From Gammaproteobacteria bacterium (GTDB lineage Bacteria > Pseudomonadota > Gammaproteobacteria > SZUA-229), in contig JACPVK010000437.1 of NCBI GenBank assembly GCA_016191795.1, positions 1-29,753 on the forward strand: a stretch of DNA of 29,753 nucleotides, given 5' to 3'. The position numbers were made by a program, and so were the translations under genes. Shown one piece after another: positions 8,319 to 14,492 of this stretch; positions within the stretch are counted from its first letter, which is position 1, and every line of letters begins with the position of its first letter. A model generated the notes under the pieces. It saw nothing but the letters and a program-made list of their open reading frames with translations. It was not told where the DNA came from and did not search any database.

Positions 8319-9122
8319 TTATTTTTTTACTGCCAGTACGCCATCACCATTGAGTTCTGCAACAAACCCGGCCTGCCTTAACCGTGTTGCCACTTCGTTT
8401 GGCACATCGCGACCACTGGTAAGCCTGTTGGGCGTGCCGGTATAGTGAAACAACTTGCCCTTGCGCCGGATGACTCTGGCCAGGTGATTATAAAAGTTTT
8501 GTGAATACAACTCACCGGCAATACCAAAACGTGGCGGGTCATGCAAAATAGCGTCTACCGATTCATTAGGCAACGCAGCAATCTGTTCCGCTATATCTGC
8601 ATTGGTTAAACTAAAATTATCAGCAACTGCCGGTGACCAGGGGTTTAAACTGCGCAACCAGATAACATCCGGGTTTTTTTCGTATGAGATCACTTGCCTG
8701 GCCTGCCCCTGCAAACACCACGCCGCAAAATAACCCAGGCCACCACAGGTATCCAGAATCACCTTGCCTTGCGGCTGAATTAAATTAACTTTACGTTGCG
8801 CATCGGCATACGGCGACACTGTTGCCGTGGGTAACATTTTAATGCCATCAATTTCAAATGTGGGCGCACCCCACTCGGTGGGTACTAATTTGATTAGCGA
8901 ATTGCTGTAACGCGATACACCCTGAAACGACTCGCCATCCCAGTAATAAATCGTTCTGTCCTTGCAGTTTTCCATGAATGGATAATGCCGGCCTTGCCAG
9001 ATCCAGCCTGTACTATCGACCTCGACAGTGGTTTTTGTACGATCCAGATCCAGTGAGCACTCAACACGGGCAGTAGCCGACTGTAATGCCTTGTGCACAG
9101 TTAAAGTTAATAGCGGCCCCAT
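8319..9122 (-). CDS. Class I SAM-dependent methyltransferase (COG2521-like)
   Basis: ILDTCGGLGYFA (motif I), DAILHDPPRF (DPP motif), KLVPTEWGAPTFEIDGIKM. Confidence 0.85.
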   Translation of the reverse strand: MGPLLTLTVHKALQSATARVECSLDLDRTKTTVEVDSTGWIWQGRHYPFMENCKDRTIYYWDGESFQGVSRYSNSLIKLVPTEWGAPTFEIDGIKMLPTATVSPYADAQRKVNLIQPQGKVILDTCGGLGYFAAWCLQGQARQVISYEKNPDVIWLRSLNPWSPAVADNFSLTNADIAEQIAALPNESVDAILHDPPRFGIAGELYSQNFYNHLARVIRRKGKLFHYTGTPNRLTSGRDVPNEVATRLRQAGFVAELNGDGVLAVKK

Positions 9123-9152
9123 AATGCCCTGACCGCATGGCGGTTATAAATA

Positions 9153-9341
9153 GGGCACCTCTAAAAACAGTCTTTTTCCGCGATAGCGGCGTCAGCTCCG
9201 TGCTCGAATCCTCATGTATTCCCACATACACTGCGGTTCTCGGCTCGGGCTTCCTGCTTCGCTCTACCTCCTTCATCCATGCAGTCGTGCGCGCGGTGCT
9301 TCCTTGCTCTCGCGAAAAAATCCAGGTTTTTAGAGGTGCCC
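9153..9341. mobile_element. MITE-like element, 189 bp
   Basis: Perfect 16-bp terminal inverted repeats GGGCACCTCTAAAAAC (9153-9168 / 9326-9341) with further imperfect subterminal similarity; AATA on both flanks (9149-9152, 9342-9345); no transposase. Confidence 0.7.
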
Positions 9342-9397
9342 AATAGAAGATATGCACATATTGAACTGAAAATTGAAAAAATCAACAGCTCAGCCCC

Positions 9398-9413
9398 TGG
9401 CACTGTTGTTGCA
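9398..9413 (+). promoter_or_regulatory. Candidate sigma54 (-24/-12) promoter with no downstream same-strand gene
   Basis: TGGCACTGTTGTTGCA matches TGGCAC-N5-TTGCW with exact GG-N10-GC spacing. Confidence 0.35.
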
Positions 9414-9468
9414 TTTTTAAACACTGTGATTTTTAATTCCGCAGGTAATCTCAGCAATATTTCACGAA

Positions 9469-9497
9469 GATTCCCGACAAAAGCATTCGGGAATGAC
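9469..9497 (+). repeat. ATTCCC...GGGAATGAC-type REP-like hairpin
   Basis: GATTCCCGA-CAAAAGCAT-TCGGGAAT-GAC. Confidence 0.55.
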
Positions 9498-9548
9498 GCT
9501 GAATTATTTGTGTTTATACTTGTTCAGCGGTTCCCTGGCTTGATGAAT

Positions 9549-9740
9549 TCAGGCTGTTTTACTTAACTTGTCACGTAACAGGCTTATCAGTTTCTCGGCA
9601 TTATCCTGCAACTCGGGCGGTATGACTTCGAACAAATATTCCACTTCATCCAGTGCTTTTTCAATATCATCCCGCGACTGAAGCTGAGGCAGTTTCATGG
9701 CAATTTCTTCCATCGAAACATAAGGATTGACACCTTTCAT
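9549..9740 (-). CDS. Small acidic helical hypothetical protein (63 aa)
   Basis: GAGGA RBS; amphipathic pattern (DIEKALDEVEYLFEVIPPELQDNAEKLISLL); directly downstream of the peroxidase gene. Confidence 0.65.
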   Translation of the reverse strand: MKGVNPYVSMEEIAMKLPQLQSRDDIEKALDEVEYLFEVIPPELQDNAEKLISLLRDKLSKTA

Positions 9741-9791
9741 AAGAAGATCCTCTTTAGAATAAAAATCACAACAGGCTTCTGCGCTTGCAGC

Positions 9792-10355
9792 TTATTTTTG
9801 CAGAAGCTGTTTTTTAATTTCGCTGATGATCGGTTCCTGCATGGGATTATTGGCACTCTTGTAATCAGCCACCAGATTACCCTTGCGATCAATTAAATAT
9901 TTGTGAAAATTCCATTGTGGATAACGCCCGGCTTTGGTCGCCAGTGCGACATAAAACGGATCAGCATTATTTTCCTTAACTTGCGTCTTTGCAAACATTG
10001 GAAACTCGACGCCATATGTCATTTTACAAAAAGTTTTGACCTCTGCTTCTGTTCCCGGCTCCTGCTGGCCAAAATCATTTGATGGAAAACCCAACACCAC
10101 CAGACCCTGGTCCCGATACTGCCCATATAGTGTTTCCAGTGCACTGTACTGACTGGTATAGGCACATTTACTGGCCGTGTTTACCACCAGTATCACTTTG
10201 CCCTGATAAGCCTCGCAAAGATTGACAATGGTATTTCCGTTGAGCGTTCTAACCTCAAAATCCAGCAAGGGTGAACACTCTTTGGCGGTCGCTTCGCTGC
10301 TAACTAACAAAGCCAGTAATACCATAACCGTTTTCATATCCATGACCTCTTTCAT
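9792..10355 (-). CDS. Glutathione peroxidase family protein (Cys-type) with N-terminal signal peptide
   Basis: GKVILVVNTASKC, VVLGFPSNDFGQQEPG, WNFHKYLID; MKTVMVLLALLVSSEATA leader (start may be 10337). Confidence 0.93.
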   Translation of the reverse strand: MKEVMDMKTVMVLLALLVSSEATAKECSPLLDFEVRTLNGNTIVNLCEAYQGKVILVVNTASKCAYTSQYSALETLYGQYRDQGLVVLGFPSNDFGQQEPGTEAEVKTFCKMTYGVEFPMFAKTQVKENNADPFYVALATKAGRYPQWNFHKYLIDRKGNLVADYKSANNPMQEPIISEIKKQLLQK

Positions 10356-10403
10356 TGTGAATAATTAAATTGTTTGCAGCTCTGATTGAAATACATATCA
10401 AAA

Positions 10404-11282
10404 CTATAAAGGCAACGTTTCCAGTGAAGTGAATTTAGTAACGCCGTCCGGCAATTTACGTAACCGGCGCACGCCTTCACCACCGGCCCAGATATCGACA
10501 TCGTCGGCAATTAATTCGCGCAACTCAAGCAAATGTGAACGAATGCTGCTGTAGGCATAGGCACCACTGAAGGTAATACCTACTACATCTACATTAAATT
10601 GTTTTACGGCGTAACCTATTTGCTCCATCGGTACTTCGCCACCCAGATTAACAATTGAAACACCATGTGATGCCAGCATGGCGGCCACCATTAACAAACC
10701 CAGGGTATGTTCTTCACCGGGCAGTGTGGCCAACATCACCAAGGGTTTGCCGGCATTTTTTTGCATGCTGGCAATTTCGGCATTTAAAAAACGAATCAGT
10801 TGTTGTGACAAAAAATGTTCCTGAAATATTTGCAGCTGACCCCTCGCCCAAAATTCACCCACTGCATGCAACAACGGGTTAACCGTCTGCAATACAAACG
10901 CCTGCATGCCCTGACGGCTGTATTGCTCCCGCAACAGCAATTCGATACGTCCCGCATCGACCGACCGTATGGCAGCCAGCATGTCCGTCACAATGGGATC
11001 AAGGGTCTGCGCTGTCGTTGTTGTTTGCAGACCGGCATCCAGCTCATCCAGGGATGCCTCACTCAGGGGCAGCAACTTACCGGGGCGCATACCCTGGTCC
11101 AGTAACCGGCGAATACGCTGCAAACGCCGTAACTGCGATTCGGAATAGACGCGCTCGCCTTTTTCGTTACGCAAGGGCTCGGGAAATCCGTATCGGCGCT
11201 CCCAAACCCGCAGCGTGTCGCGGCCTATGCCGGTATCGCGCTCCACCACACCGATTGAATACAGACCCTGAATATCAGCCAT
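10404..11282 (-). CDS. carH: CarH/LitR-family B12-dependent light-responsive repressor (MerR HTH + B12-binding)
   Basis: MerR HTH (YSIGVVERDTGIGRDTLRVWERRYG); W-x9-EH (WARGQLQIFQEH) and E-x-H-x2-G (GEEHTLG) cobalamin-binding signatures. Confidence 0.85.
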   Translation of the reverse strand: MADIQGLYSIGVVERDTGIGRDTLRVWERRYGFPEPLRNEKGERVYSESQLRRLQRIRRLLDQGMRPGKLLPLSEASLDELDAGLQTTTTAQTLDPIVTDMLAAIRSVDAGRIELLLREQYSRQGMQAFVLQTVNPLLHAVGEFWARGQLQIFQEHFLSQQLIRFLNAEIASMQKNAGKPLVMLATLPGEEHTLGLLMVAAMLASHGVSIVNLGGEVPMEQIGYAVKQFNVDVVGITFSGAYAYSSIRSHLLELRELIADDVDIWAGGEGVRRLRKLPDGVTKFTSLETLPL

Positions 11283-11323
11283 TGAATCTCACCCTGTAGA
11301 CGATGGATGGAATAATAACACGT

Positions 11324-11358
11324 TTTGTCCTAGACAAACAAGATTATTTATGTATACT
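11324..11358 (+). promoter_or_regulatory. Putative sigma70 promoter of the small-gene operon with a dyad over the -35 (candidate CarH operator)
   Basis: TTTGTC-CTA-GACAAA (11324-11338) overlapping TAGACA(11331)-16 nt-TATACT(11353). Confidence 0.5.
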
Positions 11359-11414
11359 GGACCCATGAGCCATACAGCCTCATACCCATTCTTCACCCCC
11401 ACAGGAGAAGCGCC

Positions 11415-11579
11415 ATGAGTAAATATGAACAGCAAATCCAGAACACCGAGAAGTTTTACGATGCCGCCATGCGTGCTGTCGAGCTGGAAGATGTCGAAAT
11501 CCTGAGCTCAGTGGTACCGGGCAGCACACTTCACGACAAGATTACCAACCCTTATGTGAGTGGCATTGACGAAGGTTAG
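11415..11579 (+). CDS. Small acidic protein, 54 aa (MSKYEQQIQNTEKFYDAAMRAVELEDVEILSSVVPGSTLHDKITNPYVSGIDEG); not in ORF track
   Basis: AGGAG RBS at 11403-11407, upstream promoter, downstream terminator; translated by hand. Confidence 0.7.
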   Translation: MSKYEQQIQNTEKFYDAAMRAVELEDVEILSSVVPGSTLHDKITNPYVSGIDEG

Positions 11580-11589
11580 TCGTGTCATT

Positions 11590-11618
11590 GGGAGGCCACC
11601 CCCTGGCCTCCCCTTTTT
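11590..11618 (+). terminator. Intrinsic terminator inside the small-gene cluster
   Basis: GGGAGGCCA-CCCCC-TGGCCTCCC followed by CTTTTT. Confidence 0.8.
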
Positions 11619-11637
11619 ATAGCTGCGAGGCATCTCT

Positions 11638-11787
11638 ATGCAAAAACCCGTTGCCAAACCAGCAGATATCACACCGGGCGTAGATACACCGCAACAACAA
11701 CGCCTGCCTTGCCGCGGGTGTACCCGTCACTGTGCCAATTATGGCCGGTGCGACGGCAAGCCCTGGCGTTTGATTCAAAAAAGCTAA
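11638..11787 (+). CDS. Small Cys4 protein, 49 aa (MQKPVAKPADITPGVDTPQQQRLPCRGCTRHCANYGRCDGKPWRLIQKS); not in ORF track
   Basis: GAGG RBS; C-x2-C-x3-C-x5-C motif; fills the gap between the terminator and the next RBS (19 bp to the next ATG); translated by hand. Confidence 0.7.
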   Translation: MQKPVAKPADITPGVDTPQQQRLPCRGCTRHCANYGRCDGKPWRLIQKS

Positions 11788-11806
11788 TCCATACGAGGAC
11801 CCGATC

Positions 11807-12031
11807 ATGCGCATTTCAACACTCGATCCGATTTCCATGCACGATGTACACAATATCGATAGCGCCCCCTACGTCATTGAAGGCACCGGCCCCAATGCAC
11901 TGAAAATATATTTCGAAAGCGAAACCAATAAAGCCGAGTATCTCGACATTCCGTTGCACACCGCCAATTCAACCATAACAGCTGCCTATGCCCAATGTGC
12001 CGATTCAGACATTACTGGCAGCATTAACTAG
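11807..12031 (+). CDS. Small hypothetical protein (74 aa), YHS/TRASH-like pattern without cysteines
   Basis: GAGGA RBS; DPISMHDV...KIYFESETNKAEYL resembles the DP..G..V....YF.SE....F layout. Confidence 0.7.
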   Translation: MRISTLDPISMHDVHNIDSAPYVIEGTGPNALKIYFESETNKAEYLDIPLHTANSTITAAYAQCADSDITGSIN

Positions 12032-12038
12032 CACGGGT

Positions 12039-12455
12039 ATGACTGTGCAAAACAATTTAAAACTCACCATCTTCTATGACAGCCAATGCCCGCTTTGCCT
12101 GGCCGAAATGCAACAATTAAAAAAGCTAGATAAGACCGGATCATTGGGTTTTGCCAATCTGCATGATGCTGACTTTGAAGAGCGCTATCCGCATATCGAT
12201 AAAGTCTATGCCAATCGCATTTTGCATGGCCAGCTTGATACGGGTGAAATATTGCTGGGTCTTGATGTGACATGCAAAGCCTGGTCACTGGCAGGCAAGC
12301 ACAGGTGGCTGGCCATATTACGCTGGCCTGTTATTCGAATACTGGCAGACAGCATTTACCTTTTGTTTGCACGTCATCGTTATCGTATTTCCTATTGGTT
12401 AACGGGCAAACCCCGCTGCAACACTTGCATGCTGGACAGCTCGTTAAAACCATAA
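12039..12455 (+). CDS. DUF393 / DCC-family thiol-disulfide oxidoreductase-like protein
   Basis: LTIFYDSQCPLC (DxxCxxC), GLDVTCKAW, YLLFARHRYRIS; start moved to ATG 12039. Confidence 0.9.
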   Translation: MTVQNNLKLTIFYDSQCPLCLAEMQQLKKLDKTGSLGFANLHDADFEERYPHIDKVYANRILHGQLDTGEILLGLDVTCKAWSLAGKHRWLAILRWPVIRILADSIYLLFARHRYRISYWLTGKPRCNTCMLDSSLKP

Positions 12456-12469
12456 ATTCGGCCAGCCTG

Positions 12470-12751
12470 ATGAATCTACGTTTACAGCAGCTCATACAAA
12501 ACAACAGCGTTCAGGATGAAACCAGTGAATGCTGGTTATGGACCGGTCAAATATCCAATAGCGGTTATGGCAGAATGATGATTAAGAATGACAACAACCA
12601 GACGCAAATGGAAAGCGCCCAGCAAATCAGTTACCGGGCGTATATCGGTGAAATCACAACGGGTATGCTGAGTCGCCAAACCTGTCACAATCGTTTGTGT
12701 GTTAATCCGGCGCATCTGGAATTATTTGATCCGGATGCCTGGTGCAAATGA
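12470..12751 (+). CDS. HNH (His-Me finger)-like small protein, probably catalytically degenerate (93 aa)
   Basis: ECWLWTG...SGYG...ISY...IGEI..G...TCHNRLCVNPAHL. Start moved to ATG 12470 because the upstream extension overlaps DUF393. Confidence 0.75.
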   Translation: MNLRLQQLIQNNSVQDETSECWLWTGQISNSGYGRMMIKNDNNQTQMESAQQISYRAYIGEITTGMLSRQTCHNRLCVNPAHLELFDPDAWCK

Positions 12752-12757
12752 TATGGA

Positions 12758-13669
12758 TTATATTTTGTCGCGGTAAAAATCAATAAACGCTTTTACCTTT
12801 GCCGGCAAATGTTTGCGGTTAGAATACAGTACAAAAACTTCTTTCACATCCAGCTGCGGATAGAAAATGGTGTAGTCGGGAAATATCTCCACCAGTTCAC
12901 CACTGGCCAGCTGCTCTCGTAACAGCTGAACCGGTAACAATGTGATACCCATATGCTGCATTGTCATGGCGATCATCACTGCCACCATATTGGTGTTAAC
13001 CTTACCACTGACTTCTATTACCTGCTCTGTTTTCTGATCTTTAAATGCCCACTGGAAGCTGTGATCAAACACAATGCAATTATGCTCAAGCAAGTCTGTT
13101 GGCACTAATGGCTTGCCATGTTTTTTAAAATATTCGGGGGTTGCACACAATACCAGAACAACCTTGCCTAACGATTGCGCGACATAACTACTGTCATGCA
13201 GGGCGCCTACGCGCAACACCAGATCAAGCCGTTCTTCGACGATATCCTGCATATCATCGGTTGCGACTATATCCAGCTCTATTTCCGGATGCGCCGCCAT
13301 AAATTCGCTGATATAAGGTGCAATTTTTATTTCTGTCCAGCCGATGGGTGCCCCTATTTTCAGCAAGCCTGATGCGCTTTTTTTAAAATCCGAAATCGCA
13401 TTACCGGCCTCGATGACTTCGCGTTGAATTTTCCGCGCTTTTTTATAATAAATTTCCCCGGCTTCGGTAAGGCTGATGCGCCGGGTTGTGCGTTGCAATA
13501 ATCGCACACCCAGATTCTCCTCCAGCGCACCGATCTGGCGTGACACCGAGGGCTGGGAGACACCCAGTCTACGGGCCGCTTCCGAAAAACTGCGACTGTC
13601 CGCCACCGCGATGAACACTTCCATACAGGCCAGCAGGTTGGTATTGTCGGTCATATTTATACGCTCCAT
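12758..13669 (-). CDS. LysR-family transcriptional regulator (CrgA/DmlR-like)
   Basis: SFSEAARRLGVSQPSVSRQIGALEENLGVRLLQRTTRRISLTEAG HTH; PBP2 effector domain (start may be 13654). Confidence 0.95.
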   Translation of the reverse strand: MERINMTDNTNLLACMEVFIAVADSRSFSEAARRLGVSQPSVSRQIGALEENLGVRLLQRTTRRISLTEAGEIYYKKARKIQREVIEAGNAISDFKKSASGLLKIGAPIGWTEIKIAPYISEFMAAHPEIELDIVATDDMQDIVEERLDLVLRVGALHDSSYVAQSLGKVVLVLCATPEYFKKHGKPLVPTDLLEHNCIVFDHSFQWAFKDQKTEQVIEVSGKVNTNMVAVMIAMTMQHMGITLLPVQLLREQLASGELVEIFPDYTIFYPQLDVKEVFVLYSNRKHLPAKVKAFIDFYRDKI

Positions 13670-13679
13670 GAATAAATGC

Positions 13680-13696
13680 TATGCATAATATGCATA
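13680..13696. promoter_or_regulatory. LysR recognition site
   Basis: Dyad TATGCAT-AAT-ATGCATA containing T-N11-A (13682/13694) in the divergent LysR/SDR spacer. Confidence 0.7.
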
Positions 13697-13754
13697 TTAT
13701 CTTTTATGTACAAATGAATAACATGGGCGGCACCCCAACAATGGAGAGTTAAAA

Positions 13755-14492
13755 ATGATCAAGTTTGATGTAAAAGAAAAAACCGCTCTGGTAACAGGTG
13801 CTAACCGTGGCATAGGCCTTGCCTATGTAGAACACCTGATTAAACGTGGTGCCCGTAAGGTGTATGCCGGCGTACGCGATGCCAGTACATTTGCCAGCCT
13901 GAAAGCTATCCATGAAAACGTTGAACCCGTTTTACTCGATGTCACCCGAACCGACCACATACAGGCACTGGCAAAAAAAATAGCGACGCTGGACCTGTTA
14001 ATCAATAATGCCGGCATTATTCATCCGTGTTTTAACGGCGCCGACAATGCCGCAGAGATTGCACGGACCGAAATGGAAGCCAATTATCTTGGCCCGCTCA
14101 ATTTAACACTGGCACTGTTGCCAGCACTAAAAAAATCCAGAGGCGTCATTGTTAATGTTTCATCCATTGCCGGTATCAGTAACTTCCCCAGCCTGGGCCC
14201 CTACTCTGCCACCAAAGCGGCACTGCATTCACTCACTCAAGGCTTAAGAGCTGAATTACAACGCGATGGCATGATGGTAGCCGGTGTCTACCCTGGCCCT
14301 ATTGATACCCGCATGACTGAACATTTTGAAATGGAAAAAGCACCAACCAGCCAGGTAGCAGAACGCACCTTCGCGGCTCTCGCCAAAGGTGAAGTGGATA
14401 TTTTTCCGGACAGTTTTTCGGAGCAAATGTACGGTATGTTTCTCGCCAACCCGAAAGAGCTGGAAAAAACGTTTGGCGGGATGATTCAATAA
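13755..14492 (+). CDS. Short-chain dehydrogenase/reductase (SDR)
   Basis: TGANRGIG, NNAG, NVSS, YSATK (YxxxK), PGPIDT; GGAG RBS. Confidence 0.95.
   Translation: MIKFDVKEKTALVTGANRGIGLAYVEHLIKRGARKVYAGVRDASTFASLKAIHENVEPVLLDVTRTDHIQALAKKIATLDLLINNAGIIHPCFNGADNAAEIARTEMEANYLGPLNLTLALLPALKKSRGVIVNVSSIAGISNFPSLGPYSATKAALHSLTQGLRAELQRDGMMVAGVYPGPIDTRMTEHFEMEKAPTSQVAERTFAALAKGEVDIFPDSFSEQMYGMFLANPKELEKTFGGMIQ

Follow-up and report, generated by a model that had tools for sequence, protein, structure and literature searches.

CarH/LitR is the textbook B12 photoreceptor and is also used as an optogenetic tool. In the dark it represses divergently transcribed genes by way of adenosyl-B12 (adenosylcobalamin, AdoCbl), in the light it releases them, and carotenoid and photolyase genes make up most of its known targets. 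In Thermus the CarH operator consists of three tandem 11-bp repeats, and His132, which lies beside the Trp of the AdoCbl-holding motif, ligates the cobalt after photolysis in the light-state bis-His adduct; whether this residue defines the whole of CarH class I is uncertain. Homologues without photosensory use also exist, for example CarA and AerR-type co-regulators. Here we describe a locus from an uncultured sulfur-oxidiser lineage of Gammaproteobacteria (29,753 nucleotides of contig JACPVK010000437.1, assembly GCA_016191795.1; the whole stretch is called the window below) in which a gene of this family, carH, is divergent from five small open reading frames, ORF1 to ORF5. Our reading, to which we assign a probability of roughly 0.65, is that the locus is a light-switched photo-oxidative-stress module under a class-I (AdoCbl) CarH/LitR photoreceptor-repressor, with new cargo.

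Known class-I proteins (Thermus thermophilus CarH, 5C8D/3WHP; Myxococcus CarH; Bacillus megaterium LitR) have the same three-domain build and the same conserved AdoCbl motifs as the regulator of this locus, which is likewise divergent from its presumed target and has its operator over the -35 element. What differs is the cargo, which here consists of microproteins, a DCC1-type oxidoreductase and a glutathione peroxidase (GPx) and not of carotenoid or photolyase genes, together with the host lineage, the single palindrome that serves as operator, and an Ala in place of His132. The sigmaE/RpoE2-ChrR singlet-oxygen regulons of Rhodobacter sphaeroides and Shewanella oneidensis (the latter with PgpD; PMC4336711) and, as far as it is summarised in PMC9758184, the class-II LitR regulon of Pseudomonas putida share with the locus and its relatives a periplasmic GPx, a short-chain dehydrogenase/reductase (SDR), a cfa/furan-fatty-acid cluster, DUF1722 and several uncharacterised proteins. 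Those regulons are run by an extracytoplasmic function (ECF) sigma/anti-sigma pair or by a B12-independent LitR, whereas here the regulator is a B12-type CarH. We know of no report that names ORF1, ORF2 or ORF3 as members of either kind of regulon.

According to the proposed mechanism, AdoCbl-bound CarH would sit in the dark on the palindromic operator TTTGTC-CTA-GACAAA, which lies over the rightward -35 element and abuts the putative extended -10 element of carH, so that transcription would be blocked in both directions. In the light AdoCbl would be photolysed, CarH would leave the DNA and two transcripts would rise. The leftward one would carry carH and the periplasmic GPx; the rightward one would be a short, abundant ORF1 mRNA ending at a strong terminator, read-through of which would supply lower amounts of ORF2 (with four cysteines, Cys4), ORF3 (YHS-like, without cysteines), the DCC1-type oxidoreductase ORF4 and ORF5, a degenerate HNH-like zinc protein. 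ORF1 would act by binding another protein, and the product set would serve in protection or repair under photo-oxidative stress, in parallel to the sigmaE-ChrR and LitR regulons of other proteobacteria. The features concerned are the following (aa, amino acids; nt, nucleotides; pI, isoelectric point; RBS, ribosome-binding site):

9792-10355, minus strand: glutathione peroxidase with an N-terminal signal peptide (Pfam GSHPx, PF00255, 1.3e-33), 48 nt downstream of carH.
10404-11282, minus strand: carH/litR, with a MerR-type helix-turn-helix (HTH), a four-helix B12-binding_2 and a Rossmann B12-binding domain; class-I CarH type.
11312-11320, minus strand: putative extended -10 element TGTTATTAT of the carH promoter, back-to-back with the operator.
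11324-11338, no strand: putative operator, the perfect 15-bp dyad TTTGTC-CTA-GACAAA, an inverted repeat over the -35 element (11331-11336).
11331-11358, plus strand: predicted sigma-70-type promoter of ORF1, TAGACA-16-TATACT, 10/12 consensus matches.
11365-11383, plus strand: tentative short stem-loop (ATGAG / CTCAT) at the predicted 5' end of the ORF1 mRNA.
11415-11579, plus strand: ORF1, a 54-aa acidic (pI 4.3), cysteine-free microprotein with an N-terminal helix and a conserved tail ending in ..SGIDEG.
11590-11619, plus strand: intrinsic terminator (hairpin 11590-11612 and T-run), 10 nt after the ORF1 stop.
11638-11787, plus strand: ORF2, a 49-aa basic (pI 9.7) microprotein with a Cys4 core; RBS GAGG at 11627-11630.
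11807-12031, plus strand: ORF3, a 74-aa acidic microprotein with the invariant start MRISTLDP; RBS GAGGA before 11807.
12039-12455, plus strand: ORF4, a 138-aa DCC1-like (DUF393/YuxK) thiol-disulfide oxidoreductase of the thioredoxin fold (PF04134, 3e-24).
12470-12751, plus strand: ORF5, 93 aa, HNH_3-like or His-Me-finger-like, CW-x-W-x-G ... C-x4-C-x-NP-x-HL.

The first line of evidence is the identity of the regulator. Its three domains match MerR_1 (4.5e-15), B12-binding_2 (PF02607, 1.1e-5) and B12-binding (PF02310, 7.5e-14) in Pfam, and its closest relative in the PDB is T. thermophilus CarH (5C8D/3WHP, about 3e-26), with the MerR HTH aligning from residue 24 of 5C8D onwards. Both AdoCbl motifs are invariant in 21 orthologues: W-x9-EH of the helix bundle, which holds AdoCbl and caps its adenosyl group (W145, E155 and H156, aligned to the Thermus motif), and E-x-H-x2-G of the Rossmann domain, with the lower axial His (E190, H192 and G195, aligned to PGERHEIG of 5C8D). 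In the classification summarised in PMC9758184, having both B12 domains places a LitR in class I, the AdoB12 photosensor type. All the class features that we checked are present except the equivalent of His132, which supports assigning the regulator to the class-I, AdoCbl-type CarH/LitR proteins.

The second line of evidence is the operator, which sits in the 132-bp space to the right of carH and whose right half forms the -35 element of the rightward promoter; the preliminary description of this DNA had placed a dyad at this position, and the dyad proves to be perfect. It is identical letter for letter in more than 25 loci of five genera while its flanks diverge, and promoter spacing, ORF1, terminator and gene order are kept in these loci as well. 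More distant lineages have it with one or two changes (L017, L020, L059, L060); where carH is not adjacent (L017, L020, L060), the promoter retains TGT-N-CT-R-GACA, and in G440 a CarH of 38% identity lies 7 kb away; the operator stays near-identical both where carH is not adjacent and where CarH is only 38% identical. There is one copy per locus, and that of the window is the sole exact or one-mismatch copy in the 2.8-Mb assembly; sites with two or three mismatches, considered as additional operators in the same genome, fall inside genes or in unrelated contexts. The rightward promoter match by itself is not significant in the window (3 found against 3.2 expected), and its -10 element and its distance to the operator are kept in relatives. 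To the left of the dyad the block AATAATAACA is invariant across genera, again with diverging flanks. Read on the minus strand it would be the carH promoter element TGTTATTAT, and one operator may therefore serve both directions.

The third line is linkage. The 97 genomes of the order that we compared are related and hence not independent samples; 25 of them have a CarH orthologue, 22 have ORF1 and 21 have both, and the sole genome with ORF1 and no CarH has masked bases upstream. All the organisms are uncultured, the relatives being metagenome-assembled genomes labelled Thiotrichales, Thiotrichaceae or Chromatiaceae, and the assembly to which the window belongs measures 2.8 Mb and is 74% complete. 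Distant ORF1 homologues (41-57% identity) likewise lie divergent from a gene of the MerR/B12 type, and the family is scarce outside the group, with 3 more genomes among 400 gammaproteobacterial genomes sampled. For this CarH clade ORF1 is close to a constant companion. Most telling are four genomes that have CarH but lack ORF1: here the same operator stands directly before ORF2-DCC1-HNH-like (G110, G107), ORF2-DCC1 (G106) or ORF2-ORF3-DCC1 (G077), which implies that ORF2 to ORF5 are members of the CarH-operator unit independently of ORF1. This comparison supports the view that one invariant operator ties the five small genes to CarH as a conserved module. The five-gene CarH-divergent operon proposed in the preliminary description thus stands as a module on one operator, and not as a single operon, since ORF1 is a separate, terminated unit that occurs alone in some genomes.

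That the genes themselves are real is hardly in doubt. The five frames of 54, 49, 74, 138 and 93 aa were found where they had been described, tightly packed on the plus strand (the gaps after ORF2, ORF3 and ORF4 are 19, 7 and 14 nt), and the clear RBSs claimed for the first three are there, that of ORF1 being AGGAG at 11403-11407. ORF1 and ORF2 are seldom called in public protein sets, and a word-based search finds 1-4 close clusters, which might suggest chance frames or annotation noise beside real carH and DCC1 genes; this explanation is refuted by the conservation analysis, and we give it practically no weight. In ORF1, ORF2 and ORF3 third codon positions vary 3-4 times as much as the other two, and the ratio of nonsynonymous to synonymous polymorphism (pN/pS) is 0.22 for ORF1 (pairwise pS 0.84 against pN 0.19), 0.29 for ORF2 and 0.20 for ORF3. 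The length of ORF1 is fixed, start codons and RBSs are conserved, and large protein collections hold 103 clusters of ORF1 and 141 of ORF3. By these comparisons ORF1, ORF2 and ORF3 are real genes under purifying selection, and the conservation and linkage to carH that the preliminary description had named among its tests are both found.

ORF1 occurs at 12 loci of a species-representative genome collection, and its 103 clusters were obtained at 50% identity from 1.8 billion proteins. In 28 of 30 tabulated loci it is exactly 54 aa long from its ATG, as it is in most of the clusters; one locus encodes 56 aa and one (G080, locus L041) has two TAA stops in frame. The G080 copy, next to which ORF2, ORF3 and carH are retained, is probably a pseudogene. 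Searches of Pfam, NCBIfam and PDB sequences gave no match to ORF1, and its feature neighbours in the Atlas, fragments of SnoaL/NTF2-like proteins at 0.79, lie below the level attained by chance and are non-informative. The AlphaFold2 (AF2) model has a helix at residues 3-24 with a predicted local distance difference test (pLDDT) score of about 90, and a remainder at 53-67. The helix is conserved, and the most conserved half is formed by the last 25 or so residues, ..LSSVVPGS-x-LH-x3-NP-x3-GIDEG, which run to the stop codon and are modelled with low confidence. Because a confident helix is combined with a conserved low-confidence tail, typical of a segment that folds on a partner, and with a strict link to CarH, the model suggests that ORF1 is a protein-binding modulator. 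A predicted complex of CarH (21-row alignment) with ORF1 (50 rows) scored 0.00 with a partner pLDDT of about 30, which is no answer and evidence in neither direction.

Such a protein could be more than a stress effector. ORF1 might be a second-tier regulator and the true output of the switch, a light-induced microprotein that modulates CarH as a CarS-like antirepressor with positive feedback, or that binds and modulates an anti-sigma factor, a sigma factor or an adaptor protein. This concerns the role of ORF1 only and is compatible with control by CarH and light. There is precedent in Myxococcus xanthus CarS, a small acidic antirepressor of CarA and CarH (PMC2926617), and, as with SoxR-soxS and LitR-litS, a small (acidic) protein or secondary regulator is there the direct main target of a MerR-family sensor. 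ORF1 is a near-constant companion of CarH, at some loci the sole gene behind the operator (L014/L024, L059), and the only good operator copy of the assembly lies at its promoter; its acidity, its confident helix and its unstructured, most conserved half fit folding on a partner, and an ECF sigma gene lies beside a second CarH paralogue and a cfa cluster in the same genome. However, CarS has 111 aa and an SH3-like fold, ORF1 resembles neither it nor any known regulator in sequence or fold, binding of ORF1 to CarH is conjectural, and small stress proteins with a constitutive linkage fit the data equally. We regard a regulatory role of ORF1 as unlikely. A fuller version, to which we give the same low standing, is that ORF1 is a new light-signalling microprotein and the primary, near-obligate target of CarH, its C-terminal tail docking on CarH, a sigma factor, an anti-sigma factor or an adaptor, while ORF2 and ORF3 would be further, previously undescribed light-stress effectors that cooperate with DCC1. 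If this were true, a B12 photoreceptor would drive a two-tier cascade through a 54-aa protein.

The terminator behind ORF1, which the preliminary description had already recognised, has a 9-bp stem with 7 GC pairs and an RNAfold energy of -18.5 kcal/mol. A comparable one follows ORF1 in 22 of 30 loci, in most relatives about 100 nt beyond the stop, and the next ORF starts no more than about 30 nt from it in the window and in many relatives. As there is no promoter-like site between the terminator and ORF2, expression of ORF2 to ORF5 would have to come from read-through, which would yield much ORF1 and little of the others. Several genomes have ORF1 on its own, the genes that follow lying on the opposite strand (L014/L024, L059). 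Together with its promoter and operator, 5' hairpin and strong terminator, it looks like a self-contained, highly expressed unit.

An alternative is that ORF1 is a regulatory leader peptide of the TnaC or SpeFL kind, on which ribosomes stall at the conserved C-terminus and thereby set read-through into ORF2 to ORF5. The strong conservation up to the stop codon and the terminator stem 10 nt behind it in the window would fit, and an additional hairpin found in relatives before the terminator could form alternative pairings. A leader peptide is difficult to reconcile with loci at which nothing follows ORF1 on its strand (L014/L024, L059), with a terminator that in most relatives lies beyond the reach of a ribosome at the stop codon, with conservation of the N-terminal helix, and with the four genomes in which operator and ORF2-5 genes do without ORF1; we consider a leader peptide very improbable. 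The additional hairpin is long, lies between the ORF1 stop and the terminator, some 100 nt past the stop, in most relatives (for example L024 1665-1775 and L028 1665-1775) and is absent from the window. The letters of its stem vary by lineage, while the terminator stem CCGGAGAG...CTCTCCGG is conserved in sequence; it might serve as a stabiliser, as a site for a protein or as part of an attenuator. A metagenome protein of 173 aa (P0209) runs in a single frame from an ORF1-like N-terminus into the ORF2 core, through either a fusion or a lost stop, and is a case of ORF1-ORF2 adjacency in another lineage.

Cysteine motifs had been reported for three of the products, and they are present in ORF2, ORF4 and ORF5, in the last as a weak HNH-like match. 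In ORF2 the cysteines are spaced C-x2-C-x3-C-x5-C within a core, LPCRGCT-x2-C-x2-Y-x2-C-x-GKPWRL, that is conserved in 15 sequences, the N-terminus being variable. None of these 15 members matches a family of Pfam or NCBIfam, including ferredoxins, radical SAM proteins, DUF1289 and zinc ribbons, the PDB holds nothing relevant, and the closest Atlas clusters (0.85) are unnamed and non-informative. Since the peptide is basic with four closely spaced cysteines, it may be a zinc or iron-sulfur knuckle or a redox-active peptide, and it might serve the DCC1 oxidoreductase as a client or partner.

ORF3 is modelled with low confidence (AF2 pLDDT 60). Its residues 1-50 gave repeated YHS/TRASH matches among AFDB clusters, with template-modelling (TM) scores of 0.42-0.51 and weak E-values, and two homologues are labelled 'YHS domain' by the Joint Genome Institute (JGI). 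In its pattern DP-x3-M-x-V ... IYF-x-S-E, Ser and Glu replace the metal-binding cysteines. Pfam gave no match at E<=1, YHS included, nor did NCBIfam or PDB sequences, and a Foldseek search of the model against the PDB found none. ORF3 was accordingly rejected as a canonical YHS/TRASH domain (PF04945 and relatives), there being no profile match and no cysteines; what remains is a weak likeness of fold, by which it resembles a YHS/TRASH fold now devoid of cysteines. A diverged paralogue on another contig of the same genome (C430; L054 1737-2126, minus strand; 39% identity over 51 aa; DPMSGHDI ... TIYFESE) makes up the C-terminal end of a 129-aa frame next to a fragment of a SulP/STAS-type transporter, retains the DP-x2-G form and fits the YHS pattern more closely than ORF3 does.

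ORF4 clearly belongs to the DCC1/YuxK family (DUF393, PF04134; 86.9 bits, cut-off 27.8), and its D-x2-C-x2-C motif is intact as DSQCPLC; a DCC1 gene follows ORF2 or ORF3 in most related loci. ORF5 has weak Pfam matches, HNH_3 at 0.11 (12.5 bits against a cut-off of 24.8) and zf-His_Me_endon at 0.14. As an HNH_3 or His-Me-finger endonuclease it was rejected, the matches being below threshold and the usual AHR and H-x-C-D-N histidine positions reading SAQ and RQTC. Similar genes are also last after DCC1 in G110, G107 and G004, stand beside GPx in G019 and lie elsewhere in G012 and G024; ORF5 is a facultative last member of the module. Of the HNH-like zinc knuckle first described, then, the weak HNH_3-like resemblance is left, and the catalytic histidines are missing. 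The more general proposal of thiol/metal microproteins holds for ORF2, DCC1 and the HNH-like protein, and fails for ORF1, which is the most conserved of the set and free of cysteine, and for ORF3, whose YHS/TRASH-like fold lacks the cysteines.

The neighbourhood gives the module its stress theme. The GPx downstream of carH has its catalytic Cys in NTASKC and a hydrophobic, signal-peptide-like N-terminus ending in ATA-K, from which export is predicted, and it is likely to form one operon with carH. GPx is present in nearly every locus, mostly downstream of carH and in L017, L020 and L060 directly after ORF1. Elsewhere the genes next to ORF1 or carH encode TspO, SDRs, an NmrA-like epimerase, a DinB/FGE-type (OvoA/EgtB-like) enzyme with a methyltransferase, DCC1 and DUF1722, and behind one distant CarH-ORF1 pair come genes for GSHPx, an epimerase, CbiX, a lipocalin and a Pyr_excise/DUF1722 protein of the UV-dimer glycosylase type. 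Homologues of ORF3 are the last gene of cfa-DUF1295-lipocalin-amine-oxidase-DUF1365-cfa (furan-fatty-acid) clusters in another lineage and, in a third, the gene nearest to another CarH on its divergent side. Shewanella has in its RpoE2-ChrR regulon the periplasmic GPx PgpD, an SDR, cfa, ybgA and the photolyase gene phrB (PMC4336711), and the class-II LitR regulon of P. putida, in the part summarised in PMC9758184, overlaps with the neighbours of this module in gene content. It is because of this overlap that we accept the reading as a light and photo-oxidative-stress module.

The genome holds a second CarH/LitR paralogue on contig C132 (L053 7177-8094; MerR, B12-binding_2 and a weak B12-binding match; 29% identical). 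It heads a cfa-DUF2878-DUF1295-DUF6134-lipocalin-amine oxidase-DUF1365-cfa cluster (L053 249-7158) near which DoxX, ECF sigma and SDR genes are found (9716-11542), the classical singlet-oxygen and light gene set. The operator of the window has no copy on this contig.

Several points weigh against a light-switched stress module. ORF1 and ORF3 have neither a redox nor a metal motif, and a strong terminator, followed by about 25 nt with no promoter-like site, divides ORF1 from ORF2-5. The operator is one 6-3-6 palindrome and does not fit the Thermus pattern. The residue aligned to His132 of 5C8D is Ala146 here, which is nearly invariant in the clade, and the chemistry after photolysis may hence differ from that of Thermus. 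The window contains no carotenoid or photolyase gene, as had been stated before, and no photolyase domain was found in the assembly, which is 74% complete. DNA of the window comes up chiefly in metagenomes of groundwater, sediment and soil, which are largely dark habitats. Contigs from RNA libraries of three studies cover ORF1 at 97-99% identity, one of them (11385-11625) beginning shortly behind the predicted start and reaching slightly beyond the terminator, and others cover parts of ORF2, ORF3/DCC1 and ORF5; these are a hint of expression only, because transcription and transcript ends cannot be proved from contigs and carry-over of DNA is possible, and gaps (for example over most of carH) and differences in depth between genes are not interpretable.

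The habitats, the Ala and the missing photolyase would also suit a regulator that senses B12 supply or redox and not light, the module then being a unit that responds in the dark to B12 or oxidants. Against this stand the conservation of all the AdoCbl residues of the photoreceptors (W-x9-EH and E-x-H-x2-G), genes specific to UV and light damage in related loci (Pyr_excise, DUF1722, TspO and the cfa/furan-fatty-acid cluster), and the occurrence of the stretch in freshwater and wetland metatranscriptome libraries as well. We hold a purely dark function to be improbable and prefer control by light through AdoCbl.

As far as the literature search went, the cargo and the operator are new, while the regulator family is known. 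The literature searched contained no prior description of DCC1 behind a CarH operator with Cys4 and YHS-like microproteins, nor of the operator sequence, of DCC-family proteins with photolyase or of CarH regulons with GPx. Three conserved, unannotated microprotein families thereby gain a concrete and testable regulatory context, ORF3 becomes linked to widespread furan-fatty-acid and singlet-oxygen gene clusters, and the compact 15-bp operator with its repressor is a pair for engineering. If the role of light is as we propose, the light responses of non-phototrophic sediment and groundwater bacteria would rely on parts that gene callers routinely miss. The question of real interest is the role of the 54-aa partner of CarH.

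Some smaller observations concern the surroundings of these genes. The 5' stem-loop is predicted individually in nearly all of 23 loci, in most of which CATG opens the stem, and its stems vary (ATGAGC/GCTCAT, ATGGGT/ACCCAT, GTGATC/GATCAC and others); on the alignment there are only 4 pairs, one of them with a GC/AU exchange, so covariation is weak. An Rfam scan of 9000-14000 gave only a snoRNA match, below threshold and attributable to chance. Just downstream of GPx, a 63-aa ORF at 9549-9740 on the minus strand, with no Pfam match and about 60% identical in L002, L009 and L012, may be part of the leftward carH-GPx transcript. Upstream of the ORF1-GPx pair that lacks carH in L017 (4131-6309, minus strand) lie genes for a DinB_2/FGE-sulfatase protein and a methyltransferase, built like the sulfoxide synthases of the ovothiol/ergothioneine type, so that the stress set there may include a thiol-histidine antioxidant pathway. 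On the right of the module, a LysR regulator (12758-13669, minus strand) lies convergent with the HNH-like gene and divergent from an SDR (13755-14492, plus strand). This SDR was considered as an orthologue of the one that follows DCC1 in L051, is only 28% identical to it and is therefore not a member of the module; the LysR-SDR pair at 12758-14492 looks like a separate unit.

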